Of a stretch of DNA of 64,000 nt, positions 21,684-50,347 are shown piece after piece. Source of the stretch: Acutalibacteraceae bacterium (GTDB lineage: Bacteria; Bacillota; Clostridia; Oscillospirales; Acutalibacteraceae); NCBI GenBank assembly GCA_045532945.1, contig JAZSGZ010000013.1, positions 41,900-105,899 of the forward strand. Direction: 5' to 3'. The position numbers and the translations under genes were made by a program. A model generated the notes under the pieces. That model made no database searches. It was not told the origin of the DNA and saw only the letters and a program-made list of their open reading frames with translations. The first letter of the stretch is position 1, and each line of letters begins with the position of its first letter.

Positions 21684-21690
21684 TTTATGA

Positions 21691-24451: not shown

Positions 24452-24464
24452 GGAGGTGAATTAA

Positions 24465-24626: not shown

Positions 24627-24646
24627 CACTACCTACCCAAAACTCA

Positions 24647-24677
24647 GGGTGAAAAGGATTATTAAACCTTTTCACCC
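24647..24677. terminator. bidirectional terminator hairpin between convergent genes
   Basis: 11-bp stem gggtgaaaagg / ccttttcaccc. Overlaps the 3' end of the pentapeptide-repeat gene. Confidence 0.65.
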
Positions 24678-26284: not shown

Positions 26285-26331
26285 AAAACCTCCATGATAA
26301 TTAAATATTATCCTTTATTTGTTTTTAATTT

Positions 26332-27159: not shown

Positions 27160-27262
27160 TGTTCTACTTATATATGACAAATTTCGCGAAATACTTCAAA
27201 AAATTTTTGTGATTTTTATCTTTTCTACTTTTTGCACAAAATGATGTTGCGAAAATTGTCGA
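27160..27262 (-). promoter_or_regulatory. conserved promoter-like element, copy A
   Basis: In gene orientation: TTTTGTGCAAAAAGTAGAAA box, A/T tract, TTGAAGTATTT, then GTCATATATAA. Homologous to 28582-28690 and 44965-45044. Confidence 0.6.
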
Positions 27263-27279
27263 AAATTGCTATGTATCAG

Positions 27280-28533
27280 TTAAACTAAAACTGGTTCGGT
27301 GTCTCTTGGTGTGAAATCAACAATTTGTTCAGCAGACTCAAGTTGTGTTATGTTATCCAAATAACTAACGGCGTTAAACATGTTAACAATCCCGTACTTA
27401 ACCGGAATATCAGCAGTTTCACAAGAATTATATAGAATCTGCTTTATTTGTTCATTGTTTAAATTGGGGTATTGAGTTTTTATCATTGCACAAACAGAGG
27501 TTACAAACGGTGCAGCACAGGAGGTTCCTGTAAACTCAACATAATCTCCATCGGCATACGTGGATGGTAGTTTTAGGTTTTCTCCCGGTGCGGCTACTTT
27601 TACCCAGTCACCGAAAGCTGCCTTTTTGTATAATTTCTCTGATTGATTAATTGCAGTAACAGATATAACACCATCACAAGCAGCAGGGTACTGCGGTTGT
27701 GTGCTTTTTACGTTACCTACAGATGCAATGTGTAATGGTTTTGATATCCCGCTATTGAATTTAGCAAACATACCATAACTGCTATTTATAAAATCTACGC
27801 CATCAAGTTCCGCTTGCATTTCAGCCAAATGCAAAATGGATAGCGTTGTTTCATTATCAGTGAAAATTTTATATGATATAAACTTCACATTGGGGAGAGT
27901 GTTTTCCATCAGAACGCTACAGACCCTTGCTCCGTGTCCTGTACTGGACGTAAAAGGACTTTCAGGTTCTTCTGTAAAACAATGTGCTTCTAAAAGTCGA
28001 TGAGCAAAGTCCTCATTTCCCGTTTCAACACCGTCATCGATTATACCTACTACAACATCAGGTAAATCATCAAGGCTTTTGTTTTTCAATATGTATTCAA
28101 ACGCTTCCTTACTTTTGGTGCGTTCATATCCCCAAGAGTGCTGAATTTCAGCTCTGTGAAGTGAAAGTTTAGATGTGTCAGATGAGTGTGTTTTTTCCAG
28201 TTCAATTACAATATCAGGTACAACAAGTTTTATATTAGGATTTTTGGTGTATTTGGTGAAAGCTGAGAAGGCATCAAGGGGAGTAGCATACTGCAAAATG
28301 TGCATATCACCATAGCCTGAAATATGGTCTATTGCTCCATATTTATCAAAAGCTACATCAGCGTAAACAATTAATCGTTTTGATGTGAAATGCTTTTGGA
28401 TAGAATCTTTTTTGTCATTGTTATTGTTGAAACTATAGTAGTTTATAAATTGTAAAACTTCTTTTGAAAAACCTTTTAATTCAGAAGAATGGGGAGTAGT
28501 ATTCTGAAAATTGTTGTTTGCATTTTGAATCAT
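27280..28533 (-). CDS. subtilisin-like S8 serine peptidase without a signal peptide
   Basis: Catalytic triad contexts VVGIIDDGV (Asp), STGHGARVCS (His) and GTSCAAPFVTS (Ser). I9-like prodomain. No N-terminal hydrophobic signal. Confidence 0.8.
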   Translation of the reverse strand: MIQNANNNFQNTTPHSSELKGFSKEVLQFINYYSFNNNNDKKDSIQKHFTSKRLIVYADVAFDKYGAIDHISGYGDMHILQYATPLDAFSAFTKYTKNPNIKLVVPDIVIELEKTHSSDTSKLSLHRAEIQHSWGYERTKSKEAFEYILKNKSLDDLPDVVVGIIDDGVETGNEDFAHRLLEAHCFTEEPESPFTSSTGHGARVCSVLMENTLPNVKFISYKIFTDNETTLSILHLAEMQAELDGVDFINSSYGMFAKFNSGISKPLHIASVGNVKSTQPQYPAACDGVISVTAINQSEKLYKKAAFGDWVKVAAPGENLKLPSTYADGDYVEFTGTSCAAPFVTSVCAMIKTQYPNLNNEQIKQILYNSCETADIPVKYGIVNMFNAVSYLDNITQLESAEQIVDFTPRDTEPVLV

Positions 28534-28581
28534 TGAATCATCCGTTTTTATTAATATATTATTACTATAACTTTAAATATA

Positions 28582-28690
28582 GTTTCTATTTATATATGAC
28601 GGTTTTCGCTAAATACTTCACAATTTTTTTGCGTTTTTTGCTTCTTTTTATCACTTTCTACTTTTTGCACAAAATAAATTTTGTCGATTT
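28582..28690 (-). promoter_or_regulatory. conserved promoter-like element, copy B
   Basis: Same box order as copy A (TTTTGTGCAAAAAGTAGAAA ... GTGAAGTATTTAGCG ... GTCATATATAA), with a 12-nt insertion. Confidence 0.6.
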
Positions 28691-28719
28691 GTGGGTTTTG
28701 CTGCCTTTTTGGTACTCTT

Positions 28720-28770
28720 TTTAAGAAAAACAGAGATTATCGTATTGGAAATTAGTAACGATAATCTCTG
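28720..28770 (-). terminator. terminator of the RHS/protease/lipoprotein operon
   Basis: 13-bp stem cagagattatcgt / acgataatctctg (28731-28770), followed on the - strand by tttttcttaaaaa. Confidence 0.7.
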
Positions 28771-28850
28771 CAATTTGTTTTAGGGTGAACTAAAATTATT
28801 TTTGAAATGGTAACACACAAATTGTGTTAATTATCTTTGTATTGGGTTTA

Positions 28851-29309
28851 TTAGAATAAAATATTAGAGCTATTTTCATTTCCTTCTGAAATACATAACA
28901 CACCATTGTGTTCGTTTTCAAAAGCTTGAATGTATATTTTGTTCTCGGCTCCGGTATATACTTTGCCGAATTCAACCATTTCATTACTGCTTTTGTATTG
29001 AACCCATACAGAGCCAATTTCCTTCATAGAGTCGTCCAAAATGGGTTCTTTTATTATCTTAGCTTTTTCAAGTTGGTCATTTAATTCTTGGCTTATGGTT
29101 GCATTAACCTTATTGCCGAACATTTCAAAATATACCTTTTCATAAACAGAATCCTCAAATACTTGTTTTTCTGTGGTAGTTCTGTTTGGGAAGGTTATGA
29201 TAACCTCGGTTGTATTTTTTATGTTTGTATTATTTGTACCTTTATCAGAGCAAGCTGAAAAACATAAGATAGCAATGATTAATAATAAAAAGCTTATTAT
29301 TTTTTTCAT
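28851..29309 (-). CDS. small lipoprotein
   Basis: Signal peptide with lipobox MKKIISFLLLIIAILCFSAC. Confidence 0.65.
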   Translation of the reverse strand: MKKIISFLLLIIAILCFSACSDKGTNNTNIKNTTEVIITFPNRTTTEKQVFEDSVYEKVYFEMFGNKVNATISQELNDQLEKAKIIKEPILDDSMKEIGSVWVQYKSSNEMVEFGKVYTGAENKIYIQAFENEHNGVLCISEGNENSSNILF

Positions 29310-29321
29310 ATCAATCCTCCT

Positions 29322-32300
29322 TTAACCTGCTAAAACCAAGTTCACAACCTGAGCATAATCTTCAACAGTTATTTCTTGGTCCAAGTTTGTATCTGCTGCA
29401 AGGAAATATTCATCCTCTAATGTTGCTAAATTATTAGCAACCAAAGCTACGACAGATGCATCTATAACATCTACTGCGCTATCGCCATCAACGTCACCTT
29501 CAACAATTAGTGTGTAATGTTCTCGATTAGACATATTGTAAATAACAAATTCAGAACCAGTACCATACCAAGAATATTCTTTATATACTAAAGACGGCAA
29601 AGAAGAATAGCTTGTGTTTTCTTGAATTCCAATGATATTAAAGAAATCCTTACAACCTGTTGTTTTGGTGTAAATTAAATTATTATCAAAATCAATGTGT
29701 GTATTGGGAAGGGAAACCATATAATAAAGCCTATTCTGACACATAGAACTTTTAATTATAACTTGACTAACAATATTACCATCAATATCTTTATCCGTAC
29801 TTGTCATAATACAATAATAATAAGGGTATGATTTGTAATCATCAGGATTAAATGTTTTATCTGTTGCATTTGTTATAGGTTTGTCATCATAGTTACCTTG
29901 AATTTTATCCTTTGAACCGTACCATTGATAAGTTCTATTAAATCCTCTTGCATCAAATTCAAGTGGCTCGTATGAATACTTATCCCAAATGGGCTCAATA
30001 TCCTCAACAACGGCAGTTTCTTGCGATATGTTTATAAACTCAATATCATTTTTCTCTGCCCATTGTTCTGCATAGCTATTTACACCTGATGTACCATAGA
30101 CTACGTATTCGATATACTCATTTTTGTAGTCTTTAGCAGGGACACAGTGTTTAAGGGTTGAGGGAAAGATTAAATCTACACTAACAGGTTGATAATACGA
30201 ACTATACCAACATTTACCACCACTTAAAGTATCTGGTAAATCATAAATGTATTCAACGTTAGATAGCAAAACTGTTTTGATGGGACTTGCCTCAAAAAAA
30301 GCAGACCCAATACTTGTGATTTTCGGTAAATCAATTACACTGAGCTTGGAACATTTATTGAACATATTGCGAGTGGATTCGGGATTATCTACTGTGAGAA
30401 TTTCATCAACCAAATCATATTTATCTAAAAAATCCGCTTTGGGAGCATACATAACCCTTAGATATGTGTTGAAAGCAAATGCATCGTTACCTATGCTTTC
30501 ACATTCAGGTAAATATATTTCTCGCACCTTTGCAACATTGTAAAAGGCCTCATTACCAACCTTTTTAACTTTAGGAAATACTGCTCCCAAAAAACTCGAT
30601 TGATAAAATCCAGCCTGCATTATTTCCTCGCAGTTTGGAAATTGTACCTCATATAGATTTGGTAAAAACGAAACGCCATAATAACCAATGGTTTTAATCC
30701 CGTTACCAATTATAAAATCCAAGGTCTCATTTTCATTAAATGCTCCATACTGCTCATCAAGTGTCATAGGGCGTTCATACCTGTCTAACGTATCTCCTAG
30801 AACCTCAACTGTATCAGGAAGAATAACACCATATAACTCTGCTTTATAAAATCCGCTATCCCATGAAATTTCTTTTACTGTTATTCCGTTTATTACTTCA
30901 GGGATTTTAAGATATTTGACATTGCCTGTATATCCCGTTAAAACCCCTTTTTCGTTTACCGTGAACATATCATCAGTACCTAAAACCAATGAACAAAACT
31001 TACCAAAAACATAATTACTTTTATTGCCGTCTTTATAAGCAACAGCACGTATTTTTGCTGAATCATCATATAGTGTAATTGGTTCGGTATATAAAAATCC
31101 ATTTGTGGGCGATGGATATGAATAGTCGGTTGTATAATATATATTTGAACCTGATTCGGCTGAAAGCTCTAATGTGATTTCACCAACATATTTACCCGGT
31201 TCGATACTGAATTGAGGTGCGGATAATGAATCTAAACCAAATAATTTTAAAGGATTTACAATACCGCTACCGAAAAAGTTGGTAACGTATTCTTCATCAG
31301 TTCCCGAACCGCAATTTATCACGGCTCGGATTCGTTCTTCAAAAGAACATTTTTGATTAACGCTCAAATACATTGCATATACACTTACCATAAATGGTGA
31401 AGAAAAAGATGTTCCAGCACTTGAGGTAATTTTATTATTCAAGGAGATTAAACTCATATCAGTACCAGGGGCCATTATGTCTATGTGTTTTCCGAAGTTA
31501 GTAAAATTTGCGGGCGCATTATATTTAGTGCTTGCACCAACACTAAAAATATATTCAGAGGATGTTAAAGGCGAGCCTGCAGTGAACTGAACATCGCTAC
31601 CCTCATTTCCAGCACTTGTAAAAACAGCGCAATACGAGGACCATGCATATTCAAGCGTTTCATCAAGTAGTTTAAAGCTAGGGGAGGAACCTAAACTAAT
31701 ATTTATCACATTAGCTCCATTACTAATTGCCTGAAGAATAGCTGCACACAAGAGAGTGTAACTTTCTATTGCACCATACCTGTTTACACAACGATAGTTT
31801 GCTATTTTAACATTTGGAGTTGTACAGTTAGCAATGAGGCTTGTTACCTTTGTTCCATGTCCTTGATAATCTTGTTCAGAATTCTCATCACCATCACCGG
31901 CATTATTAAAACCTGTCGGTATTAATCTGTCTTGTAAATATTTGCAATTTAAATCCACCCCAGTGTCGACAACAGCTACAATGACTTTTGGTAAGTTTTG
32001 GTTTTTATATTTTTCCAAAACCAAATCCATCCCCGTTGCTTCCAAATACCAATCATTTTTATAATTCTCGTAGGTTAATTCGGTACTGTTGGTAGTTTCT
32101 TCTGTTGTTAAAGCGACAGCATTGTAGGAAAAGTCATACTCAACAGAAATGATATCCGGATTATTTTTATATTGCTCATAGGCGTAGTTTATATCTTCTT
32201 CACTTTTAAACTGTAAAATATAGAAATCAAAAAAACCACTTACTACATCAACTGCATTATATGTATCAATAGGCTTATCAGACTGAACGATAAGACGAGG

Positions 32301-32531
32301 ACAATAATTGATTTCGATTTCTTCGTATGTGTTTTCTGTTGTTTGTTCTTCCTCAATAAATTCGGGAGTAACAAACTCAGATTCACTATATTCGTTTATC
32401 ATTTCATTTACATCTTTGCAGAATTCTTCTATGCTTTCTGAAACAATAACCTCTTCCATTGCTGAAACAGGAATACATATCATTGATGCAAGTAATGAAA
32501 CACTTAAAATAAAACTTATTGTTTTCTTCAT
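29322..32531 (-). CDS. secreted S8 peptidase with BspA-type leucine-rich repeats and a C-terminal dockerin
   Basis: Signal peptide present. Triad contexts AVVDTGVD, HGTKVTS and GTSFSSPFM. LRR_5-like repeats (...IGNDAFAFNTYL...). Dockerin Ca-loops DVDGDSAVDVIDA and DTNLDQEITVEDY. Confidence 0.8.
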   Translation of the reverse strand: MKKTISFILSVSLLASMICIPVSAMEEVIVSESIEEFCKDVNEMINEYSESEFVTPEFIEEEQTTENTYEEIEINYCPRLIVQSDKPIDTYNAVDVVSGFFDFYILQFKSEEDINYAYEQYKNNPDIISVEYDFSYNAVALTTEETTNSTELTYENYKNDWYLEATGMDLVLEKYKNQNLPKVIVAVVDTGVDLNCKYLQDRLIPTGFNNAGDGDENSEQDYQGHGTKVTSLIANCTTPNVKIANYRCVNRYGAIESYTLLCAAILQAISNGANVINISLGSSPSFKLLDETLEYAWSSYCAVFTSAGNEGSDVQFTAGSPLTSSEYIFSVGASTKYNAPANFTNFGKHIDIMAPGTDMSLISLNNKITSSAGTSFSSPFMVSVYAMYLSVNQKCSFEERIRAVINCGSGTDEEYVTNFFGSGIVNPLKLFGLDSLSAPQFSIEPGKYVGEITLELSAESGSNIYYTTDYSYPSPTNGFLYTEPITLYDDSAKIRAVAYKDGNKSNYVFGKFCSLVLGTDDMFTVNEKGVLTGYTGNVKYLKIPEVINGITVKEISWDSGFYKAELYGVILPDTVEVLGDTLDRYERPMTLDEQYGAFNENETLDFIIGNGIKTIGYYGVSFLPNLYEVQFPNCEEIMQAGFYQSSFLGAVFPKVKKVGNEAFYNVAKVREIYLPECESIGNDAFAFNTYLRVMYAPKADFLDKYDLVDEILTVDNPESTRNMFNKCSKLSVIDLPKITSIGSAFFEASPIKTVLLSNVEYIYDLPDTLSGGKCWYSSYYQPVSVDLIFPSTLKHCVPAKDYKNEYIEYVVYGTSGVNSYAEQWAEKNDIEFINISQETAVVEDIEPIWDKYSYEPLEFDARGFNRTYQWYGSKDKIQGNYDDKPITNATDKTFNPDDYKSYPYYYCIMTSTDKDIDGNIVSQVIIKSSMCQNRLYYMVSLPNTHIDFDNNLIYTKTTGCKDFFNIIGIQENTSYSSLPSLVYKEYSWYGTGSEFVIYNMSNREHYTLIVEGDVDGDSAVDVIDASVVALVANNLATLEDEYFLAADTNLDQEITVEDYAQVVNLVLAG

Positions 32532-32597
32532 TTGTTACTCCCTCTTTCGGTTTAAATTACTCAGTTGCGTATAATTGAATAACTATATAATAGGTCA

Positions 32598-35500
32598 TTA
32601 TAAAGTGATATAAATACCATTTGCTGTTGCAAATGATTTAATGGATGGAGCTGCTAACCAAATCTTAAGGTATTTGTCTGCATTGGTGTCTGTTTCAGTT
32701 ATAGAAATGATTTCACTATTTCTATTACTTACAATCCAACCATCGCCCCAAGTAGCGTTAACTCTGTTAATAGCACTTTCTGCATAATTACCTACACAAC
32801 GTGCAAAAAGATTTGATGCAATTCTTTCAACACTCATATTTTTTATATTTCTGCCATTAAGATAATCCCATGTACCTGACTCGCTTATTATTTTAGATGC
32901 ATACAGAGTGCAGAAAGGTCTTGAAAGGAAAGCTTTGTCCATATCCACCTGAATACCACGTGATTGGTCACTTGTGAAAGTGAATTTGTTTCTGTCCCAT
33001 TCCGCATTTGCATCATGATTGTTAATAAGATTATTGTTGCAAATAATATGCGAGTTTATCTTAAGTGGTTCATCGGTGGGGGATGTAAGTTCTTCTAAGG
33101 ATGTCTCATTAAGAGTACGACCCCAAGTTGGTGAATAACATTTGTTTTGGATAAAATATGTACCCAATTCGTAGTCATATAAATATCCTTTATATGTGCA
33201 AGGATTATACATAACTTCTATAGTATTGAAAACTTCTTCAAGGGTTGTATTTCCTTTTACATCCATATAAAGACTTCCAAAAGCATCATAGATGAATTCA
33301 ACAATTATTTCACCTTCTACATTTACTAATCCACAAACATTATCGGAAGAATCTTTAAGGAAATAGTAGGGTATTCCTGTGGGGCTTATAATTCCACAAG
33401 GCGATCCCAGATTATCATACAAAATGTTCGTGTACATATATTCTTCTGAGCCTTCATCAAGTAAAACCAGTTGCATATTAGATAATTGACCATTTTCCCA
33501 AACATAATTAATCTGTTGCTGTTCTACAAAAGGATCAGGATCAGTATTACTCTCAGGGGCATATTCGTGTACTGTTTTATTAATTCTGAAACCATTTTCA
33601 TCGTAAGCAAAAGTCAATTTTTGTTCAGGTGTTGAACCGGAATAAATTATTGCACTTGTAAGTTGGTTACCATTCCAACTTAAATCTGCTACAATTGTTT
33701 CGTTAACGGTATTTTTACCAATATATTTAAGGGGGTTACCATAACTGTCGTATGGGATTTCAAAACTGTTTTCAACAGTCGTATTAGCAAGGTTACCTTC
33801 GGAATCGTATGAAAAGCTTTTTTCTTCATACTTTATCATTTGTCCTAAAGAATCATATGTGAAATATTGAATAGATTCAGGCTCAACAGGTGTAATACGC
33901 ATATTGTTGAATGCAGACCAATCAATAGTATTCCATGTTTCGTATGTTACATTTTCCAAAATGCCAATTAATGTTGCATCAATACCACTTATTGCAACAT
34001 CTTCAGAAAGAATTTTTTCAATAATATTGCCATTGTCATCATACACATAGAACTCACAACCCAATGGACTTAAGGTAGCAGTTACCTGGTTGGCTTCGTC
34101 ATATTGATAGTAACTTTCCATATAGCAACTACCATCGTGGTAAAATCTATATACAAAACGAATATTGCCATGACTATCATATGCATAATTATAGGTGAAG
34201 TCATTTGTAGTTGTGTTACCAATTGTTAGTTCATTAGTGATGCTTTCGATCAAATTGCTCGTTCTATTACCAGGAATAGATTCATCAGGTTCAAGAGTTT
34301 TATATGTATAGTTATTAGTTAAGCCAAATACTATAGAGTCAGAATCTGTTGAACCTAATAAATTGGTCTCTAAAGTGAAATATTTTGAAGAAATTCTACC
34401 AAAATAATCTGTTACTACATTGTTGCTACCGTTAGTAGCGACAATTGACTCAGAGTCAACTATTGAAAGTTTTTCGCTATAAAATTCCGAATAAAGTTCA
34501 GTTGTTGTTCCAATAGTTGTTTCGGTAATTGGGGTTTTTGAAATTGTTTCATATTCATTAACGCCACTTACAGATGAAATAAAAGTTTCAACAGTATTTA
34601 TATCTTCTTGTTCTTTTGAATATACCAATGTTCCTATATCGTTTTGTAAATAGTAAATCTCAATTTTTGAATCTGTGCACTTGATTTTTATGTCGTGTGA
34701 TAAATCAACAGAACTTATTATAGTTTCAGAAATATGACCATCTGAATATGTATACATGTAAGATCCAACAACAGTATAGTCATTATTTTCATCAAGCTTA
34801 TAACCGGTGATATTAGTTATTTCACCATTTTCGTTATATGAATATTCTAACTTGTATCCGTTTGAATAAACAATAGAACCTATATTGTTATTGACATAGG
34901 TATAATCTACTAAATTGTTTGTTTGAGGCATCTCTGAAGAAAGCTCATTTTTGTTTATGTTGGTTAAGTTACCAATATCATCATAGGTGAAATTGTAACT
35001 ATAATTGTTATTAGAAACAGTAGTTATACGATCGGAAGAATCGTATGTGTAGTTTGTTAACAAATCAAGATTTTCACCTGTTACACTATTGATAGTTTGC
35101 GACACCTTTTTCAAAAGACCCGCACGATTGTATTCGAACTCAATTGGATTTGATATATAGTTGCCATCAAGTGCAGAACCTTTTTCAGAAAGCAAAGTTG
35201 ATCTTCCACTATAATCGAAGAACGTTGATGCATCATTAAAATCAGTGGTGTTGATAAGATTTTGTCCATTTGAAGAATATTTATATTCTTGCAACATATA
35301 GGTTGAGCCGTCTGAAATGTATTCTTTGATTACAGTACCATCCTCAGTAATCGTTGTTGTTATTGGGTCTGATAAGGAAACACCGGGCATAGTAGCGGAA
35401 CCATCTTCTGGAACTGCTTCATAAACATAGACATTATCTAAATAGATTTCACCAAGTTGTCCTTCAGCATATATAGATACTGTAGCGGCACATTCAATAT

Positions 35501-37856: not shown

Positions 37857-38002
37857 AGTATTTAATCTCCTTTTGTTTTTATTTTTTGAAACTTAATTCT
37901 AAAAGAATGTCACCTCCAAAGAAATCAGATACTATATTTCACCTTCATAATAATAGATACAAATTAAAAAGTAAGGTGTGTTGCAAAAAAATGAAAAAAA
38001 GC

Positions 38003-38034
38003 GACAAAAAAATAAACGATCAATAAAGATCGCT
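38003..38034 (-). terminator. terminator after the histidine kinase gene
   Basis: On the - strand: aagcgatc-tttatt-gatcgttt followed by atttttttt. Confidence 0.55.
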
Positions 38035-38037
38035 TAT

Positions 38038-39327
38038 TTATACAGGTATTAAAATTGTAATTTTGAATTCGTTGTTATCATATATCCATTCAAGCTCGCC
38101 ATTGTAATTTTTTAATGCTTTAAGAACACTTTTTATACCAAATCCATGTATGTTTTTGTTTTCCTTGGTGGAAATAAGCATTTCTTTGTTTTCTACAGGT
38201 TTTGTTGAGCAACTGTTTTTTACTACGATTTTGTGGAATTTATTATCGCTTTCTAAAAATAAATTAATATATGGGTTTATTTCTTTTTCGGCTCTTTCAA
38301 CAGCATTTCCCAGAAGGTTATCAAGAATGGAAGATAAATCGTAATCATTGATGAAAGACAGATTTTCGTTTAGCGAGACGGTATTGAACTGTATATGTTT
38401 ATCTTTGCAAAGCAAAGCATATTTGTTAATTATCACATCCAGCAATTTGTTTTTTGTTTTAGCTTTAATGGATATTTCATTTGACCTATCGTACATATCT
38501 TTGATGTATTGCTTAACATTTTCTTCTGTTGTCAGGTTTCCAATGTTTATAAGATTGTTGCGAATATCGTGTATAAAAATTCGTGTTTCTTCATCTTTCT
38601 TTTCGAGAATATCAAGATATTCTAAGTTTATTGCTTGTTTTTGTTCAACCATTTCTATATCGTGAAGTTTCTTTTGGTTTGTGATGTCTCTCTCGTGCAC
38701 AGCAAAAACAACAATGTTTGCAATAAACATGAGAACTTCGGCAACTACACACATAGCCGTGGATAATACTGATGATTCAAAGAATTGACTTTGAACTCGT
38801 AGAACAACGGTTATAAAGAAAGTGGTAATAGGTAATATCGTTAAATATATAGAAATTTTCGTTCCTTCTTTTTTTATGCGTTTTTTAGCAAAGGAAGAAA
38901 TTATAGTTAAAAGTATAAAATATAAAAATTTTGCCGCAAAAGCTTCTTCGATAAATATAATAATATCGTTTTTGAAATGTGTTACCTCTAAGTTTAGCAT
39001 GTGTGAAACTATGAATAAAACAGTATATTCCGCAATCCACATTAATGCTACAAGTAATAAAGAATGGAAAAACGCAAGTTTTCGGTCACATTTGAAACCT
39101 AATAAAAGAACTAATCCAAACAAAATGAGTGTTGCTATGATGTTTATAGCTTCACTAAAGAAAAGGTTCAGTAGTAACCACAGAATAATATTTGCAGAAA
39201 AACAAATACATATGGTTGTTTTAAAGTTCGTTTTATAAGGGAAAAGACGATAACCATACCAAAATACTAAATATGTATTTAATAAATATATCAGAAGGGT
39301 TAATGCGTATATCATTGGTTTGCTCAT
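38038..39327 (-). CDS. agrC: AgrC-like (HPK10) membrane sensor histidine kinase
   Basis: About 6 N-terminal TM helices. HDIRNNL H-box. GHKL C-terminus NIHGFGIKSV. Adjacent to a LytTR response regulator. Confidence 0.75.
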   Translation of the reverse strand: MSKPMIYALTLLIYLLNTYLVFWYGYRLFPYKTNFKTTICICFSANIILWLLLNLFFSEAINIIATLILFGLVLLLGFKCDRKLAFFHSLLLVALMWIAEYTVLFIVSHMLNLEVTHFKNDIIIFIEEAFAAKFLYFILLTIISSFAKKRIKKEGTKISIYLTILPITTFFITVVLRVQSQFFESSVLSTAMCVVAEVLMFIANIVVFAVHERDITNQKKLHDIEMVEQKQAINLEYLDILEKKDEETRIFIHDIRNNLINIGNLTTEENVKQYIKDMYDRSNEISIKAKTKNKLLDVIINKYALLCKDKHIQFNTVSLNENLSFINDYDLSSILDNLLGNAVERAEKEINPYINLFLESDNKFHKIVVKNSCSTKPVENKEMLISTKENKNIHGFGIKSVLKALKNYNGELEWIYDNNEFKITILIPV

Positions 39328-39329
39328 TC

Positions 39330-40037
39330 TTACATCCCTCTTTCTGCATACAAGAACATTTTTGTTCTGAATTCTTTTTGTTTTTTAGGAGCGATTGATA
39401 TATCTGTTGTTTTTTCGTCATATTCCAAAACGAGAGAAGTGCGATTAAAGCTTTTAATGAAATTAAAGTTAACAATAAAGCTTGTGTGAGGTGAATAGAA
39501 ATTAACTTCATTTAATTTTTCTTTCCAAAACTCAATCTTTTCTTTAGAAACATATTCACCATCAGTTGTGATGATACGAGTTTTTCGTTTGTATATTTCG
39601 CAATATACTATTGTGTTAGTTGATATAATTGCAGAATTATTATCGGCACATATGATTTTTATTTCTTTGTTTGAGATTGAAAGTAGTGCCGCATCTAATG
39701 AACGATACAAACGAATTATATCCAATGGCTTTTGTAAAAATCTATATGCACCTATTTCAAAAGCATCATCAAGATAATCAGAGTAAGCAGTAACCATAAA
39801 TATAATTATATTGTTGAATTTTTGTTTAAGCTTTTTACCAATTTCAACACCACTTATAGAAGGCATTTCTACATCAAGAAACGCCATATCAAAGCATATA
39901 TCACTATCAAGAAGCTCGTTGCCATCTTCATATGAGTAAATTTCGGTGCTTATCGTTTTGTCATTGAAATAGTTAACCAATGCATTTTCAACATCTTTTA
40001 TAATTTTCTTATCATCGTCACAAATCGCAATTTTCAC
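39330..40037 (-). CDS. agrA: LytTR-family response regulator (AgrA-like)
   Basis: Receiver domain KIAICDDD...FLDVEMP, plus a C-terminal LytTR domain. GTG 40037 follows GGAGGG. Confidence 0.8.
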   Translation of the reverse strand: MKIAICDDDKKIIKDVENALVNYFNDKTISTEIYSYEDGNELLDSDICFDMAFLDVEMPSISGVEIGKKLKQKFNNIIIFMVTAYSDYLDDAFEIGAYRFLQKPLDIIRLYRSLDAALLSISNKEIKIICADNNSAIISTNTIVYCEIYKRKTRIITTDGEYVSKEKIEFWKEKLNEVNFYSPHTSFIVNFNFIKSFNRTSLVLEYDEKTTDISIAPKKQKEFRTKMFLYAERGM

Positions 40038-40121
40038 AATTACCCTCCAAAAAATAAATGCCGTAAACATTATTTTAAGTTTACGGCATTAAAAATAGTT
40101 TGTCAAATGTTATTTGGAGTA

Positions 40122-40442
40122 TTATTTATGACTGTCAACAAGAGCTTTTACGAATATTTTCACTACACCCATTTCTTCATCTGTGCATTCTCGTAGGTAT
40201 TCTTCTATTTCATCAATGTCATTTTTCTTAGCAACACCTAATGTGAAGTAATCGACAGTTACATTTAAAGCTGTAGCTATTTCATACAACAATTGTATAT
40301 TGGTTTTTGTTCTACCAGTTTCAATTGCAGATATATGTTTGGCAGATACGCCAACCTTTTCTGCTAAATCCTCTTGAGTTATGTTTAATTGTCTTCTTCG
40401 TGTGCCGATTCTGAATCCCATCATTTTTAAATTTAATTTCAT
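40122..40442 (-). CDS. XRE-family HTH regulator
   Basis: LNITQEDLAEKVGVSAKHISAIETGRT. ATG 40442 chosen over the longer track ORF. Confidence 0.7.
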   Translation of the reverse strand: MKLNLKMMGFRIGTRRRQLNITQEDLAEKVGVSAKHISAIETGRTKTNIQLLYEIATALNVTVDYFTLGVAKKNDIDEIEEYLRECTDEEMGVVKIFVKALVDSHK

Positions 40443-40660
40443 ATAACCACCATATGTGATTTTATCATCAAATTTAATTATTAAACACTCCCTTGTATTA
40501 GAGTTCTCTAATATGAGGTTGTAATATGAACTTTTCAATAGATAATTTTACCAATTATTTCGAAAATGATTATTTTCATATTCTTTTGTGATTTATTTGT
40601 GAAATATATTGAAAATAAAATAATACACAATTATATTGCTTTTAGATGGGAGGTGAAAAA

Positions 40661-40822
40661 ATGAATGTGAAAAACAAAATTCAGGTGAAAACTGCATCTG
40701 TAATTAAAAAGGCGGTTAATCATTCTTGCAAGGTTGATGCTAATTCAACAACGTGTCTTTCAATTTATCAGCCTAAAGCACCGGCAGCACTTAAAAACTT
40801 CAGTAAGTTTAATAAAGAATGA
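40661..40822 (+). CDS. agrD: AgrD-type cyclic-lactone autoinducer peptide precursor (not in ORF track)
   Basis: GGGAGGTG RBS present. Sequence MNVKNKIQVKTASVIKKAVNHSCKVDANSTTCLSIYQPKAPAALKNFSKFNKE. A Cys plus 4 residues followed by a QPKAP motif, as in clostridial AgrD. Stop overlaps the agrB start (ATGA). Confidence 0.7.
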   Translation: MNVKNKIQVKTASVIKKAVNHSCKVDANSTTCLSIYQPKAPAALKNFSKFNKE

Positions 40823-41409
40823 TTAGCAGTATCGCTTCAAAGGTTGTAAAAAAACTTATTGATAGTGCAGTTATCTCTGACACTGAGCAAGAACTATATT
40901 TATATGGATTCTTTGTATTGATTTCACAGATACTATATTTCACTTTAACAATAATATTTGGAATTATATTGGATATAGTTCTTGAAAGTGTTGTTTTCTA
41001 CATTGCTTTTCAATTTATCAGAAGGTATGCCGGTGGAATACATGCTTCAAGTGAATTGAAATGTGCAGTTGCAACCACAACATCAATATTTCTTTGCCTG
41101 TTTTGTGTTAAGTTGTGTGAAACAAGTAATATACAGGTTTTTGTTTTGATGCTTACAGCATTATCATCTGCTTTTATATTTGTTTTTTGTCCGCTTGATA
41201 CACCTGAAAAACCACTTACTGAAAAAGAATATAAATATTTTCGCAAGATTTCCAGAATAGTGTTAATGGTTTTGTTAGTTGTTATTATTGTCTGTGTAAT
41301 TATAAAATCAAATGTAGCATATTCTGTGTGTTTTGGCATAATACTAGAATCCTTTTTGTTAATTGCCGGAAGATTAAAAAGATTCTATAACAGAAAATAT
41401 GTTGGATAA
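40819..41409 (+). CDS. agrB: AgrB-family autoinducer-processing membrane protease
   Basis: Polytopic membrane protein with the conserved FIRRYAGGIHA motif. Confidence 0.8.
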   Translation: MISSIASKVVKKLIDSAVISDTEQELYLYGFFVLISQILYFTLTIIFGIILDIVLESVVFYIAFQFIRRYAGGIHASSELKCAVATTTSIFLCLFCVKLCETSNIQVFVLMLTALSSAFIFVFCPLDTPEKPLTEKEYKYFRKISRIVLMVLLVVIIVCVIIKSNVAYSVCFGIILESFLLIAGRLKRFYNRKYVG

Positions 41410-41788
41410 TAATATATTTGGTGTGTTTCTTAAAGAGCAACGCAAGCAGAAAGGCGTCTCGCTAAGAGTACTTGCGGACAAATTAAATGTATCACATTCA
41501 TACTTGTCAAATATAGAAAATGGTAAAAAACCACCACCAAGTAATGCTTTGCTAATTGAAATTGCTTCAGCGTTATCATTAGATTACAAATCAAAAACGT
41601 TACTTTTTGATATTGCTTCGGAAATAAAAAATATTAATAACAAAGATATTAGTGCTCCAGCAGATATTTCAAAATACTTGATGGAAAAACCGTCTTTAAA
41701 AGTATTGATACGAGAAGCTGATAAACATGGTTGTTCAAATGAGTTTTGGGAAGAAGTATTGCAAGTTGTTAAAGATATGTCCCAGTAA
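41399..41788 (+). CDS. XRE-family HTH regulator
   Basis: VSLRVLADKLNVSHSYLSNIENGKK. Confidence 0.75.
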   Translation: MLDNNIFGVFLKEQRKQKGVSLRVLADKLNVSHSYLSNIENGKKPPPSNALLIEIASALSLDYKSKTLLFDIASEIKNINNKDISAPADISKYLMEKPSLKVLIREADKHGCSNEFWEEVLQVVKDMSQ

Positions 41789-41803
41789 AATGGGATATAT
41801 TTT

Positions 41804-42040
41804 TTGACGAAAATGGTAACCAATGGTGAACAAGAAAATATGATTATAATTACACGGGTTGTACCCGTATCTATTAACGTTAAGAAGGTTCATTGTCCAG
41901 TGTGTGGAGCAAGATTATGTGATGTAAAAAAGAGTCAGCAAATTAGTGAGGAGTTTTTAAATAATGATTATTTAAATGGTATCATTATAAAATGCTATAA
42001 ATGTGGGAGAAAATTTAATATAGTTACTAAAGACTTATAA
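41804..42040 (+). CDS. small zinc-ribbon protein
   Basis: Two CxxC pairs (CPVCGARLC ... CYKCGRKF). Start uncertain: TTG 41804, ATG 41813 or ATG 41840. Confidence 0.5.
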   Translation: MTKMVTNGEQENMIIITRVVPVSINVKKVHCPVCGARLCDVKKSQQISEEFLNNDYLNGIIIKCYKCGRKFNIVTKDL

Positions 42041-42076
42041 AAAAGATTAAATTATATGTACAGTGCACCATAGTGA

Positions 42077-42117
42077 TAGGAGCCTGACGAGTTTTCGTCA
42101 GGCTCCTATTATTTTTT
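42077..42117 (+). terminator. rho-independent terminator
   Basis: Perfect 14-bp stem taggagcctgacga / tcgtcaggctccta followed by ttatttttt. Confidence 0.85.
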
Positions 42118-42234
42118 GAACTTGATGGAAACAGAAAGGTCAAAATGAAATTTATATGGCAACCCTACATAGCTGAATATCCATAATCTCCAGTTTTTGA
42201 AAACTGAAATTCAAAAACAAAGGAGATTATAAAA

Positions 42235-42690
42235 ATGTATAAAAATAAAAAATTTGATTACGATTTATGGACAACCAATGATGATGGCGTTAAGCGTTAC
42301 TGGGTAAGAATCCGTGCAACACAGGAAGTTGTTGAAGTAGATCTCAAAACCTTGCGTTTTTTAAGAACTGAAGAGAAAAAGATATATCGAGCCATAGAAG
42401 ATGCTCGTAATAATGCAGGTACAGTTTTGTCATATGAAATTTTTGAAGATGAAGAAGTTTCGGGTGAATGGTTGATAGATGAAAAAGACTTAGAAACTCA
42501 AGTACTTATGCAAACAGAAATTGATGCCGTTGTGAAAACACTCACATCCAAACAGTTTTGGGTTTATAAGAATTGCATATTGGAAGGTATGGAGTTGCGA
42601 GAATTTGCAAGAAAAAACAACTTATCTTACTCAACGGTTAAAGACATAAGAGATGCAATAAGAAAAAAATTTCAAAAAAGTTTTAATTGA
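42235..42690 (+). CDS. sigma-70 region-4-like HTH protein (ICE regulatory)
   Basis: The C-terminus LTSKQFWVYKNCILEGMELREFARKNNLSYSTVKDIRDAIRKK resembles a sigma region 4 / LuxR-type HTH. Confidence 0.5.
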   Translation: MYKNKKFDYDLWTTNDDGVKRYWVRIRATQEVVEVDLKTLRFLRTEEKKIYRAIEDARNNAGTVLSYEIFEDEEVSGEWLIDEKDLETQVLMQTEIDAVVKTLTSKQFWVYKNCILEGMELREFARKNNLSYSTVKDIRDAIRKKFQKSFN

Positions 42691-43114
42691 TACCCGCTCA
42701 AAAGCTAAAAAAATGTCCGTTGTCAAGTAGAGGGGGTTAAAACCTCGAATGCACTTTGACAACAGAATAGATATTTTATCAAGTACGTTGCTATTATTCT
42801 TGCAGAGGCAAGAGCCACGATAGGACTGCGCCATGATCTGACAGAACAGATGTTGTTTTTATTAACAACATCTTGTTCTGTTGTGGGAGCGATAAACAGT
42901 TGCTATAGATATCAAATAGCTTTTGATATGGCGATAACCGATAATAGTGATAATGATACTCCTGTTTAGTCACAGGTCGAGCGTGATAAAACCGTCGCAA
43001 CCAATGAGGGCAGTTGGCAGAGAACCTGCCGAGGGTGAAATTCCCGTGGAGCTGAGTAGCTATCAGCCGCTTGATAAGATTCAAAAGTATTTCTTCAAAA
43101 CATGGAGGTTAGCT

Positions 43115-43264
43115 ATGGATTTACATAAGGTACAAGAAAACACTTATACAACCACTATTGATGGTTCGATTATTACATTAAAATTTTCAAAAGAGCCTAA
43201 TGAAGTATTAGTAAAAAATATTAAAGAATGTTTGTTGAATTCTATTGTAAAATTATCAAAATAA
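43115..43264 (+). CDS. small hypothetical protein (49 aa) preceding the recombinase
   Basis: GGAGG at 43103-43107, ATG at 43115. The track ORF 42947-43264 extends into structured non-coding sequence. Confidence 0.4.
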   Translation: MDLHKVQENTYTTTIDGSIITLKFSKEPNEVLVKNIKECLLNSIVKLSK

Positions 43265-43327
43265 TGCTGGATATATAAATGTTGTTGTGATAGTGTTGTG
43301 TCGAAATCAAGTAAAGGTGGTGCACTA

Positions 43328-44914
43328 ATGGCTGGCGAAAGAGTGTATTGTTTATATCGTGTATCAACTTCAAAGCAAGTTGATATGGATGAACATAATT
43401 TAGCGGATATCCCTATGCAACGAAAAGCTTGCAGAGAGTTTGCTAAAAAAATGGGTTGGGACATTATTCGTGAGGAACAAGAAAACGGAGTATCCGGATT
43501 CAAAAAGAGTGCTGCTGAAAGAGATAAGATACAACTTATTAAAGAGCATGCCGTAAAAGGTTTGTTTGACATATTACTAGTTTTTATGTTTGACAGATTA
43601 GGAAGGAAATCAGATGAGACACCATTTATTGTAGAATGGCTCTGCTCACAAGGTATTAAGGTTTGGAGCGTCAATGAAGGTGAACAACGCTTTGACTCTC
43701 ACACAGATAGACTCACCAACTACATAAGATATTGGCAGGCTGATGGTGAAAGCCAAAAAACTGCAATCAGAACAAGAACTGCCATGGAACAAATGGTCAT
43801 GGATGGCAGATGGCGTGGTGGTATACCACCATTTGGATATAGAGCTGTAAAAAGCGGTATAGTTAACAAAAGAAAACATGAAGTATATAAATTGGAGATA
43901 AACGAAGAAGAAGCTGTAATAGTAAGACTGATATTCGACCTATCTGCAAATAGTGGATATGGAAGATGGAAAATTGCTACCATATTAAATGAACGTGGTT
44001 ATAAAACTCGTAGTGGTGGTACATGGGTAGATTCAAGTGTAGGACATATACTTCATAACAATATTTACATAGGTATGTTAAAGAATGGTTCGGCAATATC
44101 GGGACCGTATGAAGAATTAAGAATTATTGATGATGTTACTTTCTATAAAGTACAAAAACAAACAAATTTACGAACTAATGAAAAAAACAATGAAAGAACA
44201 ATACCTTTAAATATATCGGGTCAATCACTGTTATCCGGTAATGTGTTCTGCGGACATTGTAAAGGCAGACTCACATTAACAACCAATGGTGAAACCCGAA
44301 AACATGTAGACGGTACATCTGTACACAGAAGAAAAGTCAGATACGTTTGCTATAATAAAACAAGAAAAAAATTAAACTGCGATGGCCAAACAGGATACAC
44401 TATGCGTATCTTGGATGAAAAGGTCATCGCAGTTTTACATATGATTTTTGATAAAATGAAAGATATGACACCACAGGAAATGGCAAGTCATATTCATGAC
44501 AAACAGATGTCAAATTTAAAAATTGAGTTATCGGCAGCAAAAGCAAAATTTGATAAAGCGGAGAAAGAATACAATGCCTTAAAAAGTGAAATTGTAAAAT
44601 CTATCCAAGGTGAAAGCAAGTACAATGCAGATATACTATCGGAGCTTTTGATATCAGCTCAAGAAACGTTAGAAACTGCAAAGAAAAGTTATTTAGAAGC
44701 TCAAAACAACTATACTCAAGGTGAATTACAAATACAGGAATTAACTAACAACTATACTCGAATACTCAGATGGTCAGAGATTTTTGATGAGAGTCCTATG
44801 GAAACCAAAAAACAAATAGCTAGTATGATAATAAATAGAGTGTATGTTTATGAAGGTTATCGGTTGGAGTTTGAGTTTAATATTAATTTTGAAAACATTT
44901 GCAAAAACAAATGA
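43328..44914 (+). CDS. large serine recombinase (ICE integrase)
   Basis: Resolvase catalytic domain with YCLYRVSTSKQ. Recombinase and zinc-ribbon region CGHCKGRL...VCYNK. C-terminal coiled coil. Confidence 0.85.
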   Translation: MAGERVYCLYRVSTSKQVDMDEHNLADIPMQRKACREFAKKMGWDIIREEQENGVSGFKKSAAERDKIQLIKEHAVKGLFDILLVFMFDRLGRKSDETPFIVEWLCSQGIKVWSVNEGEQRFDSHTDRLTNYIRYWQADGESQKTAIRTRTAMEQMVMDGRWRGGIPPFGYRAVKSGIVNKRKHEVYKLEINEEEAVIVRLIFDLSANSGYGRWKIATILNERGYKTRSGGTWVDSSVGHILHNNIYIGMLKNGSAISGPYEELRIIDDVTFYKVQKQTNLRTNEKNNERTIPLNISGQSLLSGNVFCGHCKGRLTLTTNGETRKHVDGTSVHRRKVRYVCYNKTRKKLNCDGQTGYTMRILDEKVIAVLHMIFDKMKDMTPQEMASHIHDKQMSNLKIELSAAKAKFDKAEKEYNALKSEIVKSIQGESKYNADILSELLISAQETLETAKKSYLEAQNNYTQGELQIQELTNNYTRILRWSEIFDESPMETKKQIASMIINRVYVYEGYRLEFEFNINFENICKNK

Positions 44915-44964
44915 AATGAATATTTACATTTCTTGAATTGCTTTTTCACCCAAAAATAAAACTG

Positions 44965-45044
44965 TTTTTTTGTGGAAAAAGTCGAATTTTGTAAAAACTG
45001 AAAAATTTTTTGAAGTATTTGCAATATTTTGTCATATATATATG
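44965..45044 (+). promoter_or_regulatory. conserved promoter-like element, copy C
   Basis: TTTTGTGGAAAAAGTCG ... AAAAATTTTTTGAAGTATTTGC ... TTTGTCATATATATA. Aligns with copies A and B. Lies 35 nt upstream of the FRG gene. Confidence 0.6.
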
Positions 45045-45078
45045 CAGGGTAATTCAATTAAGAAAGGAATAAATACAG

Positions 45079-45945
45079 ATGTATTATTTTAGTCAAGTAC
45101 AAATTAATAGTATAGGTAGTTATATCGAAGAAGTAATTAGAATGAAATATATCTGCGACTCGTCCAAAGAATATTTCCAGTGGTATAGAGGACATGCCGA
45201 TGCATCTTGGGAACTTTTACCCAAAATTCAAAGGGGTTTTAATGGAGCTGACGAAGAATTGTTTCGTAAAGAAAGGTTTTACACTAATGATTTTCAAGCT
45301 CGAGCAAGCATTTTTAAATCACCCAAGCCTAAACTTAATGAATATGCCAATTGGCTTACTTTAATGCAACACTATGGGCTTCCTACTAGACTGTTGGATT
45401 GGTCTAGATCGCCACTAGTTGCATTATACTTTGCCGTTTCCGAAGAAACTGAAATTGAAAAAGATGCTTGTGTATGGGTCTTAACTCCAGGTAAATTGAA
45501 TGAGTTAGAAAGACTAGAAAAATCTTCTCAAGTAGATGATAAAGAATATGATAATACATTTATATATAATATGGAACACAAAACAGTATCAACGATGATT
45601 TATACAGCATTTAAGCGCTGGGAGTTAAGCGATAACAAAAAAGCGATAACACCAGAAGATAAAAAATTTGATTACAGATTTAAAACACTAAGAGATAAAA
45701 TAGTGGCTTGCTATCCGACAGAATCAGACTCTAGAGTTTATAATCAGTTGGCTGCATTTACAGTACATAATTCCACAAGAAAATTAGAAGATATATGTAA
45801 TGATAAAACACTTATGAAAATAATTATTCCTCATGAATTTAAACAAACATTATTATATGAATTGCGTGTTTGTGGAATAACCGATAGTTATATATATCCG
45901 GATTTGGAACATTTAGCAAAAGAACTTGAAAGTTTTATAGATTAA
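45079..45945 (+). CDS. FRG-domain protein
   Basis: WYRGH...W.LLPK and LMQHYGLPTRLLDWSRSPLVALYFAV match the FRG domain signature. Confidence 0.7.
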   Translation: MYYFSQVQINSIGSYIEEVIRMKYICDSSKEYFQWYRGHADASWELLPKIQRGFNGADEELFRKERFYTNDFQARASIFKSPKPKLNEYANWLTLMQHYGLPTRLLDWSRSPLVALYFAVSEETEIEKDACVWVLTPGKLNELERLEKSSQVDDKEYDNTFIYNMEHKTVSTMIYTAFKRWELSDNKKAITPEDKKFDYRFKTLRDKIVACYPTESDSRVYNQLAAFTVHNSTRKLEDICNDKTLMKIIIPHEFKQTLLYELRVCGITDSYIYPDLEHLAKELESFID

Positions 45946-46004
45946 CTTTTGGGTATTATCAACTTATATTTTTATTAAAATACACCTTGGTGGGGAGTGT
46001 AAAT

Positions 46005-48275: not shown

Positions 48276-48314
48276 AAATCTTCGTAAGTATATTAATAAA
48301 GTCAAGGAGTTTTC

Positions 48315-50214: not shown

Positions 50215-50347
50215 ATTATGAAATGGCATTTAGATGTACTGAGACTTCTTAAATATTGTTTTATTGATTGACCACATTGGAAAAGTATGTTATATTTTAT
50301 TCGAGTTGAGGTGATTTGTTATAGCAACCAAGAAAAAGCTTCCTAAT

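Follow-up and report, generated by a model that had tools for sequence, protein, structure and literature searches.

A conserved promoter-like module upstream of defence and conflict genes in ruminant-gut Acutalibacteraceae

The 64,000-nucleotide stretch of an Acutalibacteraceae genome analysed here (GenBank assembly GCA_045532945.1, contig JAZSGZ010000013.1, positions 41,900 to 105,899 of the forward strand; hereafter the window) carries three copies, A to C, of a conserved promoter-like element, each standing before an unrelated gene or operon (Table 1). The element core, TGAAGTATTT-N10-GTCATATATA, occurs in all three copies without a mismatch, against a chance expectation of 0.01, and an upstream box of 20 nt (box1, TTTTGTGCAAAAAGTAGAAA) is exact in copies A and B and has 3 mismatches in copy C, where 0.06 matches are expected by chance in the window and three were reached in 0 of 100 shuffles. 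A profile hidden Markov model (HMM) of 76 independent copies from other genomes, run on the window, matches copies A, B, and C only, with no other match at E <= 1. An earlier reading of this DNA from its letters alone (the sequence-only reading) had reported these three copies, and their coordinates and orientations hold, far beyond chance; its statement that box1 is identical in A and B is also borne out, while its count of 2 mismatches in copy C falls short by one. Two weaker copies that it listed at 50097-50116 and 51664-51684 are not members, because the HMM matches in the window are A, B, and C only; the core is absent from both, the first (50100-50119) being a box1-like stretch with 5 of 20 mismatches, and the box1-like stretch at 51664 standing before an ordinary TTTAC-N-TATAAT promoter. 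The distance from the end of GTCATATATA to the ATG is 60 nt in copy A, 57 nt in copy B, and 38 nt in copy C. Copies A and B head two consecutive single-gene units (in the order B, S8 protease, A, 258-amino-acid (aa) protein). The wider setting is an integrative and conjugative element (ICE): window positions 1-14 kb hold a conjugation module (VirB4-like ATPase, MobL relaxase, Toprim primase, and coupling protein), and the region from there to a large serine recombinase (43298-44914) is cargo, comprising an RHS-type protein, an agr-like quorum-sensing set, two XRE proteins, and a 151-aa sigma-4-like protein.

Table 1. Features of the window (L-numbers denote loci from genomes other than that of the window).
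Feature	Position	Strand	Details
Element copy A	27162..27243	-	box1 TTTTGTGCAAAAAGTAGAAA 27222-27241; A-tract 27199-27221; HMM E = 5.6e-13
Core blocks of copy A	27169-27198	-	-35-like TGAAGTATTT 27189-27198; -10-like GTCATATATA 27169-27178; predicted start site ~27165
Gene behind copy A	26332..27108	-	258-aa protein; 91%-identical homologue behind the same element in L004
Element copy B	28585..28674	-	box1 28655-28674; core 28591-28620, with TGAAGTATTT 28611-28620 and GTCATATATA 28591-28600; HMM E = 9.9e-9
Gene behind copy B	27280..28533	-	417-aa cytoplasmic S8 (subtilase) protease; PADLOC subtilase 6.6e-10
Element copy C	44966..45048	+	box1 44968-44987; core 45011-45040, with TGAAGTATTT 45011-45020 and GTCATATATA 45031-45040; predicted start site ~45044; HMM E = 1.6e-13
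Operon behind copy C	45079..49867	+	FRG 45079-45945; radical-SAM + DUF4062 45987-48275; two proteins without known function 48315-49106 and 49100-49867
Conserved module	42078..45041	+	94% nucleotide identity in three metagenome-assembled genomes of other species (L020, L078, L084); copy C is its last 80 bp
Contents of conserved module		+	151-aa sigma-4-like protein 42235-42690; pemK RNA 42950-43049; large serine recombinase 43298-44914; element C
Putative inversion sites	17037-17055; 20686-20704; 21731-21752; 26296-26317	+; -; +; -
26-nt direct repeats	50189-50214 and 51935-51960	+	second runs into tRNA 3' fragment 51956-51985, before a conserved WbsX gene

The anatomy of the element was derived from 38 aligned, diverse copies together with an anchored profile of 76 copies, and positions are counted from the T of TGAAG. 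The module is ~90-120 bp long and begins with box0 (TTGTnnnnTTTnACyAA, ~-80 to -60), which is weakly conserved and is replaced by a terminator hairpin in one subfamily. Next come box1 (TTGTGCAAAAC-N-GAAA, -41 to -22), A-rich sequence in which AAAAA occupies -9 to -5, and the core itself, consisting of TGAAGTATTT, ten variable bases with a T-rich end, and GTCATATATA, then W-R-TG. Conservation extends outside the searched pattern to a G at -1 and to the post-core TA-W-R-TG. The offset of box1 falls into discrete classes among 75 unique copies (-41 (+/-1) in 68, -30/-29 in 4, and -52/-53 in 3), copy B of the window being a +11-bp spacing variant with box1 at -52. The upstream site is thus confined to one helical face, and since the 11-bp steps keep box1 on the same side of the helix, it behaves like a protein site contacting the transcription machinery. 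The shortest distances from the element to a start codon with a Shine-Dalgarno sequence are 17-20 nt, which implies that transcription would have to start within a few bases of the conserved TG; a start at this place would in turn make GTCATA/CATATA the -10 region and TGAAGT the -35 region.

Because RNAalifold found 0 consensus pairs over the 38 diverse copies and Rfam returned no match for the element, either at the gathering threshold or at E <= 10, the element appears to work as DNA. The alternative of a structured non-coding RNA or leader element, for which nothing speaks other than a position upstream of genes, is effectively refuted by these results and by the 17-20 nt gaps to the ATG, given which the conserved part lies mostly upstream of possible transcript starts. 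Two known forms of control were also considered and rejected. A perfect Spo0A-type 0A box (TGTCGAA) is present in 20 of the 79 copies described below, at the box1 position or a fixed 10 nt upstream (offsets -40, -51), but it is not conserved across subfamilies, others having TGTGCAA instead, and Spo0A is retained as a lead only. Promoters controlled by LytTR proteins (AgrA/ComE-type) carry a pair of 9-bp direct repeats at a period of ~21 bp upstream of the -35. Control of this kind came into question because an agr-like locus lies nearby, but the lag-21 repeat score of the element is 5.64 versus 5.62 in shuffled sequence, and agr genes lie near only 4 loci.

The exact pattern was scanned for in 185,579 species, each represented by a single genome (that of the window is not a representative), and 91 loci were returned. 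True members comprise 79 copies at 73 loci in ~35 metagenome-assembled genomes (MAGs), with 1-5 exact copies per MAG; these genomes are labelled Acutalibacteraceae, Eubacteriales, Oscillospiraceae, or Clostridia and come from ruminant guts, and all members show conservation beyond the searched pattern. The remaining 18 loci belong to unrelated phyla, lie within open reading frames (ORFs), have no flanking similarity, match the HMM over the pattern only, and are attributed to chance. Secondary copies in the retrieved loci are divided about equally between those that are exact over 18 positions and those with 1-4 changes (TGAAGTATTC, GACATATATA, and others), and it is therefore estimated that a genome holds roughly ten copies. 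A scan of 241 million metagenome records added 60 loci, of which about ten are true members by full-length HMM match (E <= 1e-7), the other ~50 lying inside ORFs and matching over the pattern only (E >= 1e-5). The same pattern scan over the 2.9 million viral contigs of IMG/VR gave 2 chance matches, again inside ORFs and with HMM similarity confined to the pattern, and no true member, and a phage origin was rejected on these grounds. GCA_045605105.1 (JAZUPJ010000027.1) is 99.4% identical to the window over positions 42706-48945. Full-text literature searches on the element, its regulation, and its host clade found no description of such an element.

The element is strongly polar with respect to genes. 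In the 79 copies from other genomes, the next called downstream gene is co-oriented in 71 of the 73 cases with a neighbour, at a median gap of ~40 nt, while the upstream neighbours are 36 tandem versus 32 divergent. The sequence-only reading had held that its proposal would fall if the element proved to be a dispersed repeat without positional bias relative to start codons; this is not what is seen, and the promoter-like placement that it proposed, before co-oriented and unrelated genes, extends to ~40 families. The copies thus show the bias in orientation and distance towards the starts of non-homologous genes that characterises a regulon-type cis-element.

The first downstream genes, identified with Pfam and PADLOC, form ~40 unrelated clusters that mostly belong to defence or conflict systems; none of them is a housekeeping gene. 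Signalling and effector proteins are represented by TIR+GAF, SIR2, SIR2+STALD (ThsA), AAA_21+DUF4435 (AriA/AriAB, PARIS-like), SMODS/nucleotidyltransferase, and reverse transcriptase (RVT_1) genes, and restriction-modification by a type IIG enzyme, HsdM (type I methylase), a C5 methylase (Dcm), and a QueC-like protein. The cargo further includes nucleoside triphosphatases and helicases (AAA_35/STAND, SF1 helicase/nSTAND) as well as DUF4062, SMEK, DUF5655, CoiA nuclease, PDC-M30A, S8 subtilase (10 loci, the family of the copy B protease), FRG, and radical-SAM+DUF4062 genes. Ten unannotated downstream proteins were searched with PADLOC, which returned PDC-M30A for one (E = 1.7e-27), a marginal RTasNitrilase/DRT match for another (E = 0.0004), and nothing for the eight others. 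The 258-aa protein behind copy A, called cyclase-like in the sequence-only reading, has no match in Pfam, NCBIfam, or PADLOC. In other taxa (L161-L163, L164-L167), FRG homologues with 65-71% identity stand beside an 856-aa S8 protease or a DUF4062 protein, and this recurrence of FRG, S8 protease, and DUF4062 as partners fits a common conflict-system role for the three element-bearing genes of the window. The commonest cassette behind the element, found at 17 loci, encodes two proteins, the first of 74 aa (MFKKLVFSF...) and the second of 242 aa, that have no match in Pfam, NCBIfam, or PADLOC (L006, L007, L010, L017, L023, L026, L031, L032, L034, L050, L057, L064, L073, L075, L087, and others). 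In every case a terminator hairpin, fused to the element, stands before the pair, which is a candidate new defence or addiction module.

In clostridia, the sigma-A promoter type is TTGAAA/TATAAT (PMC4031146). The element departs from it in that the A at position 2 and the T at position 6 of a sigma-A -10 (A-11 and T-7) never coincide in a register of GTCATATATAWRTG, and a sigma-70 consensus scan called neither the element in copies A, B, and C nor any other candidate promoter between the element and the ATG. About ten loci also have a canonical TTGAAA-N17-TATAAT promoter before the same gene, ~100 nt past the element. Because a sigma-A -10 is missing and textbook sigma-A promoters stand in tandem downstream, the element appears to be a promoter class distinct from sigma-A that is sometimes in tandem with a housekeeping promoter. 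It is unlikely that the element is instead an ordinary, strong, constitutive sigma-A promoter with an A-tract resembling an upstream promoter (UP) element, conserved merely through recent spread with mobile cargo and serving no regulator or regulon. Such a reading can draw on nTGAAG lying 17 bp from CATATA (a possible weak match, with 3-4 of 6 bases shared with TTGACA, which sigma-A promoters carry 16-18 bp upstream of the -10, and with the base before TGAAG mostly G), on an A-tract placed where a UP element would sit, on flanking modules that are 94% identical between species and so point to rapid horizontal spread, and on the lack of any regulator found nearby; yet it leaves unexplained why invariant bases (GTATTT after TGAA, GTC before ATATA) fall outside the sigma-A hexamers, why N10 and the upstream spacers have diverged when the blocks have not, and why the spacing of box1 is quantised by helical turns. 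Promoters of extracytoplasmic function (ECF) sigma factors have a 'GAAC'-type -35 and a 'CGTC'-type -10 placed 16-17 bp apart; TGAAGT and GTC are both present in the element, but their invariant spacing is 14 bp. A second conserved block was observed ~60-130 nt downstream of the element at L041, L059, L067, L069, L074, L076, L085, L086, and L091, mostly before restriction-modification genes. It is an imperfect palindrome (TAGTCCT-N-AGGATTA) abutting the upstream side of a canonical TTGAAA-N17-TATAAT promoter, and is likely to represent an operator with a sigma-A promoter in tandem with the element.

The sequence-only reading had suggested that the element might be under the control of the ICE sigma-like protein, and a version of this idea, in which the element is read with the help of the 151-aa protein as an ICE-encoded regulon for ICE cargo, was weighed. 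The 151-aa protein has no Pfam match, and its matches to NCBIfam region-4 models are far below threshold (23.7 bits versus a cut-off of 126). Its predicted structure (mean predicted local distance difference test score, pLDDT, 77) joins a three-stranded sheet and a long helix, through a disordered linker, to a C-terminal domain of four helices. This domain can be superposed on sigma region 4, at 1.4 A over 60 residues for 3hug and 1.4 A over 63 residues for 2h27, with weak Foldseek E-values of 0.02-0.3. Members of the sigma-70 family have region 2 and region 4; in the predicted model only the C-terminal domain resembles region 4, the N-terminal domain is beta-rich, and no sigma-2 domain is present, so that the protein, as modelled, is not a complete sigma factor. 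That region 4 of ECF sigma factors is the -35-binding domain, that the -35-like TGAAGT resembles the ECF 'GAAC' motif, and that the gene and elements occur on the same contigs in at least 5 MAGs (going by contigs of matching length) and in the window all keep the protein a candidate reader of the element, nothing more, and the target promoters and promoter consensus of sigma-like proteins of clostridial conjugative elements are unknown (PMC7438776). The family of the protein is widespread in the clade (74 clusters). Besides the missing sigma-2 domain and the low family and fold scores, several features make the reading through this protein quite unlikely: the protein lies within 8 kb of C-type copies only, in the spoVAD insertions an identical protein stands with a different recombinase and the element is absent from the surrounding 6 kb, and the DNA-binding C-terminus varies among family members while the element core is invariant. 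The dependence on this protein that had been suggested is thus not supported. The element was also rejected as an integral part of the sigma-like/serine-recombinase module, since diverged relatives and the spoVAD-inserting variant are without it, a canonical promoter standing in its place in L174. A local sigma factor was likewise rejected, an ECF sigma and anti-sigma pair lying between two copies only in L063 and L055; jackhmmer searches with that ECF sigma and with the 151-aa protein found no further homologues in any locus.

The regulatory block to which the 151-aa gene belongs (38038-44914; RHS protein, agr-like histidine kinase, LytTR response regulator, AgrD, AgrB, XRE proteins, and 151-aa protein) is also found in L154, L157, and L168-L177. 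It pairs with two alternative large serine recombinases, one of 531-540 aa with variable flanks and the other of 568-573 aa accompanied by DUF6870; the latter variant is inserted in spoVAD and resembles a sporulation-gene intervening element. Two RNAs of the window score above the Rfam gathering threshold, namely the pemK RNA upstream of the serine recombinase (63.3 bits) and a DUF3800-XI RNA at 10175-10221 (39.4 bits), which overlaps the listed start of a DUF3800 ORF (10109-10939).

Comparison of loci between species demonstrates that gene content changes at the element. The identity of the conserved module with L020, L078, and L084 ends at 45041-45047, the end of GTCATATATA, after which different co-oriented genes follow. 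Depending on the context, the gene behind copy C is FRG, a 259-aa transmembrane protein, a 509-aa protein, or SUa-2TM, and the slot filled in the window by the FRG/radical-SAM operon holds other genes in L020, L078/L084, and L168 (in L168, the element is followed by one gene, SUa-2TM, then by a tRNA 3' fragment and a WbsX gene). The upstream flank of copy B comprises a lipoprotein gene and an S8-LRR-dockerin gene. Flank and element recur at 76-81% identity in L004, L077, and L050; this identity stops 20-45 nt past the -10, and what follows is the S8 protease in the window and L004, SIR2-STALD in L077, and nothing in L050. In L068, the S8 gene is 73% identical, and its core and leader are 92% identical to those of copy B, while the upstream half of the element belongs to another subtype; this chimera places a breakpoint inside the element, upstream of the -35. 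The next element of L068 precedes different genes, and tandem copies occur in L026, L057, and L068. An empty site for copy C was sought through FRG homologues, the closest of which outside the clade (65-71% identity) lie in other contexts with no element.

Such breaks raise the question of whether the element is primarily a recombination site, used as attachment (att) site by the large serine recombinase next to it or as an integron-like cassette boundary, with its promoter look being secondary. The att sites of large serine recombinases show the same junction on both sides of independent insertions and an imperfect dyad around the crossover dinucleotide. The sharp end of the copy C module at GTCATATATA in three other genomes would suit a crossover point, as would the differing genes behind it, which all are co-oriented and start 40-55 nt away, and relatives of the ICE do integrate site-specifically in spoVAD, ~100 nt past their recombinase gene. 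However, the element has no dyad symmetry, the sequences after the break (window, L020, and L078) are unrelated, and the breakpoints scatter, lying 20 and 45 nt downstream of the -10 in the copy B contexts and upstream of the -35 in the L068 chimera. Most copies also lack a recombinase within 8 kb, the probable island border is a tRNA-fragment repeat ~5-7 kb further on, and polarity towards start codons is a prediction of the promoter reading. A recombination site as the primary function is therefore very unlikely. The scatter of breakpoints, together with the absence of a dyad and of any common sequence after the break, argues instead for homologous exchange anchored on the conserved promoter. 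The sequence-only reading had offered cassette-type acquisition as its second possibility; the synteny breaks at and inside the element support that suggestion in part, and the same three features tell against an integron-like att site.

A putative site-specific inversion system is a separate feature close to element A. A tyrosine recombinase gene (20775-21683) within window positions 17037-26317 is flanked by two perfect inverted-repeat pairs (TTTAAAGGATAA-N7-TTATC; 29 and 22 nt). Between the two repeats of each pair lie convergent genes, with start codons 10-40 nt away from the sites (SHMT-like versus TPR; radical-SAM/methyltransferase versus pentapeptide protein), an arrangement that looks like two gene-swapping inversion switches; element A would feed one of these via the 258-aa gene. 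L068 and L077 carry this recombinase (92-95% aa identity) together with its sites. In L077, an inversion site lies 12 nt after the element and the segment carries SIR2-STALD versus a TIR-like gene; judging from this arrangement, the element there appears to act as the constant outer promoter for an inversion switch, worked by the recombinase, that alternates two defence genes.

The right end of the island probably lies beyond the FRG/radical-SAM operon. The two 26-nt direct repeats bracket a HATPase+DUF4325 gene (50348-51604), the tRNA 3' fragment into which the second repeat runs also stands before WbsX in L010 (4683-4740) and L168 (9726-9793), and ARAGORN found no intact tRNA. The repeats at 50189-51985 probably represent att remnants left by tandem integrations and delimit the ICE or island on its right side. 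Since the repeat lies past the operon and marks the border before WbsX at the two other loci as well, the FRG/radical-SAM operon is most likely a variable cargo slot within the ICE, between recombinase and border; the placement of copy C and its operon outside the ICE, as originally read, is probably wrong, the border lying ~5-7 kb further on.

Taken together, these data indicate that the element is probably a portable, factor-dependent promoter module that brings many unrelated defence cassettes under a single transcriptional input and sits as an unchanging 5' border in front of cargo slots with exchangeable contents. Anatomy, polarity, restriction to the clade, gene content, and synteny breaks are observed directly; transcription initiation at the module, a need for a factor, co-regulation, and the mechanism of exchange are proposed. 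In this proposal, the module would head defence and conflict cassettes in the ICE cargo regions and islands of a ruminant-gut Acutalibacteraceae clade, and its parts stand in the order terminator or box0 (often), box1, A-tract in the position of a UP element, -35-like TGAAGTATTT, T-rich 10-bp spacer, and -10-like GTCATATATA, with the predicted start ~5-7 nt past the last. Initiation would need a dedicated factor, as suggested by the absence of a sigma-A-type -10 and the restriction of box1 to one helix face; this factor could be an alternative sigma, or else an activator that binds box1, the -35 block, or both. A single input would then govern roughly ten unrelated defence loci in each genome. 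The module far exceeds the downstream sequence in conservation and may for this reason also be the site of cassette exchange, which would probably proceed by homologous recombination. Several points weigh against this proposal. The conserved blocks were fixed by the search pattern, and invariance free of that bias rests on ~12 secondary copies; recent horizontal spread could account for part of the very high conservation of the core, as the 94% identity between species of the module around copy C suggests; no candidate sigma or regulator recurs within 8 kb of the copies; and the element could, in place of a new class, be a weak sigma-A promoter helped by the A-tract. In addition, ~17 of the 41 representative downstream genes are without annotation and two encode secreted proteins, so that 'defence' describes the majority of the cargo and not all of it.

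A bolder form of the proposal is a clade-wide 'immune regulon', in which one dedicated factor (an alternative sigma, an activator, or the ICE sigma-4-like protein) switches dozens of defence systems via the module, which also serves as the homology anchor for cassette swapping between ICEs and islands; this form is put forward tentatively and is more doubtful than the proposal above. If true, such a regulon would be the promoter-defined counterpart, in Clostridia, of integron cassette arrays, and 'guilt by promoter' would flag new defence genes, including the 74-aa/242-aa pair, the 258-aa protein, and several unannotated proteins of 250-730 aa. One promoter before ~40 unrelated defence families in ~35 species of a gut clade would point to coordinated control of a whole repertoire. 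The element offers a DNA bait for regulator hunting (DNA affinity purification sequencing, DAP-seq; phylogenetic profiling) and a sequence tag for uncharacterised defence genes in rumen bacteria, and it suggests that a conserved promoter can serve as the fixed edge of exchangeable ICE cargo slots, including inversion switches between alternative defence genes.

The element shares features with several known systems. At class I activator-dependent promoters, CRP sites are centred at -61.5, -72.5, or -82.5; box1 of the element similarly keeps one helical face in 11-bp steps (-30/-41/-52), and its A-tract, at ~-40 to -44 from the predicted start, is placed as in UP-element promoters, whereas box1 is not a recognisable CRP or FNR palindrome. 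Integrons, including sedentary chromosomal integrons, store defence cassettes, and attC is an imperfect palindrome at the 3' end of the cassette, next to the IntI integrase. Common to integrons and the element are arrays of single-gene units in which unrelated, often defence, cassettes are exchanged behind a conserved sequence. The element differs in standing at the 5' end of the cassette and carrying the promoter, in having no pairing potential or attC-like palindrome and no IntI (the tyrosine recombinase of the window uses other sites), in its scattered breakpoints, and in the spread of its copies over several loci. The regulation of anti-phage defence is mostly known per system, through cis-encoded regulators. 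The element resembles the BrxR/CapW-type and CapH-CapP regulators (see bioRxiv 10.1101/2022.04.27.489752) in that transcriptional control is attached to many defence systems, but those regulators are encoded in cis with each system and bind local palindromes, whereas the element is one promoter sequence common to many systems with no co-travelling regulator gene. Sigma-like regulators of Tn916/Tn1549/Tn5397-type conjugative transposons offer another parallel, with a small sigma-region-4-like protein beside a clostridial ICE recombinase and conserved promoters in ICE cargo (PMC7438776); the window protein, a candidate reader of the element, differs in being without a sigma-2 domain. A further likeness is to the alternative-sigma (group 5) promoters of clostridial mobile elements, those of TcdR, UviA, BotR, and TetR, which are also lineage-restricted, highly conserved, and placed before accessory, often mobile, conflict genes in Clostridia. 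The group 5 consensus (-35 TTTACA, -10 GTTATA; PMC4031146) has a -10 that is one base from the GTCATA of the element, both beginning with G followed by an A/T-rich run and both distinct from TTGAAA/TATAAT. The -35 block of the element is TGAAGTATTT in all copies, giving TGAAGT in place of TTTACA, none of the copies was seen to have a TcdR-like sigma gene nearby, and the element would drive ~40 unrelated families where a group 5 promoter drives one toxin or bacteriocin locus. A regulon promoter is known as a kind, and what is new is the scope, a common promoter for a defence repertoire, together with the architecture and the link to cassette exchange.

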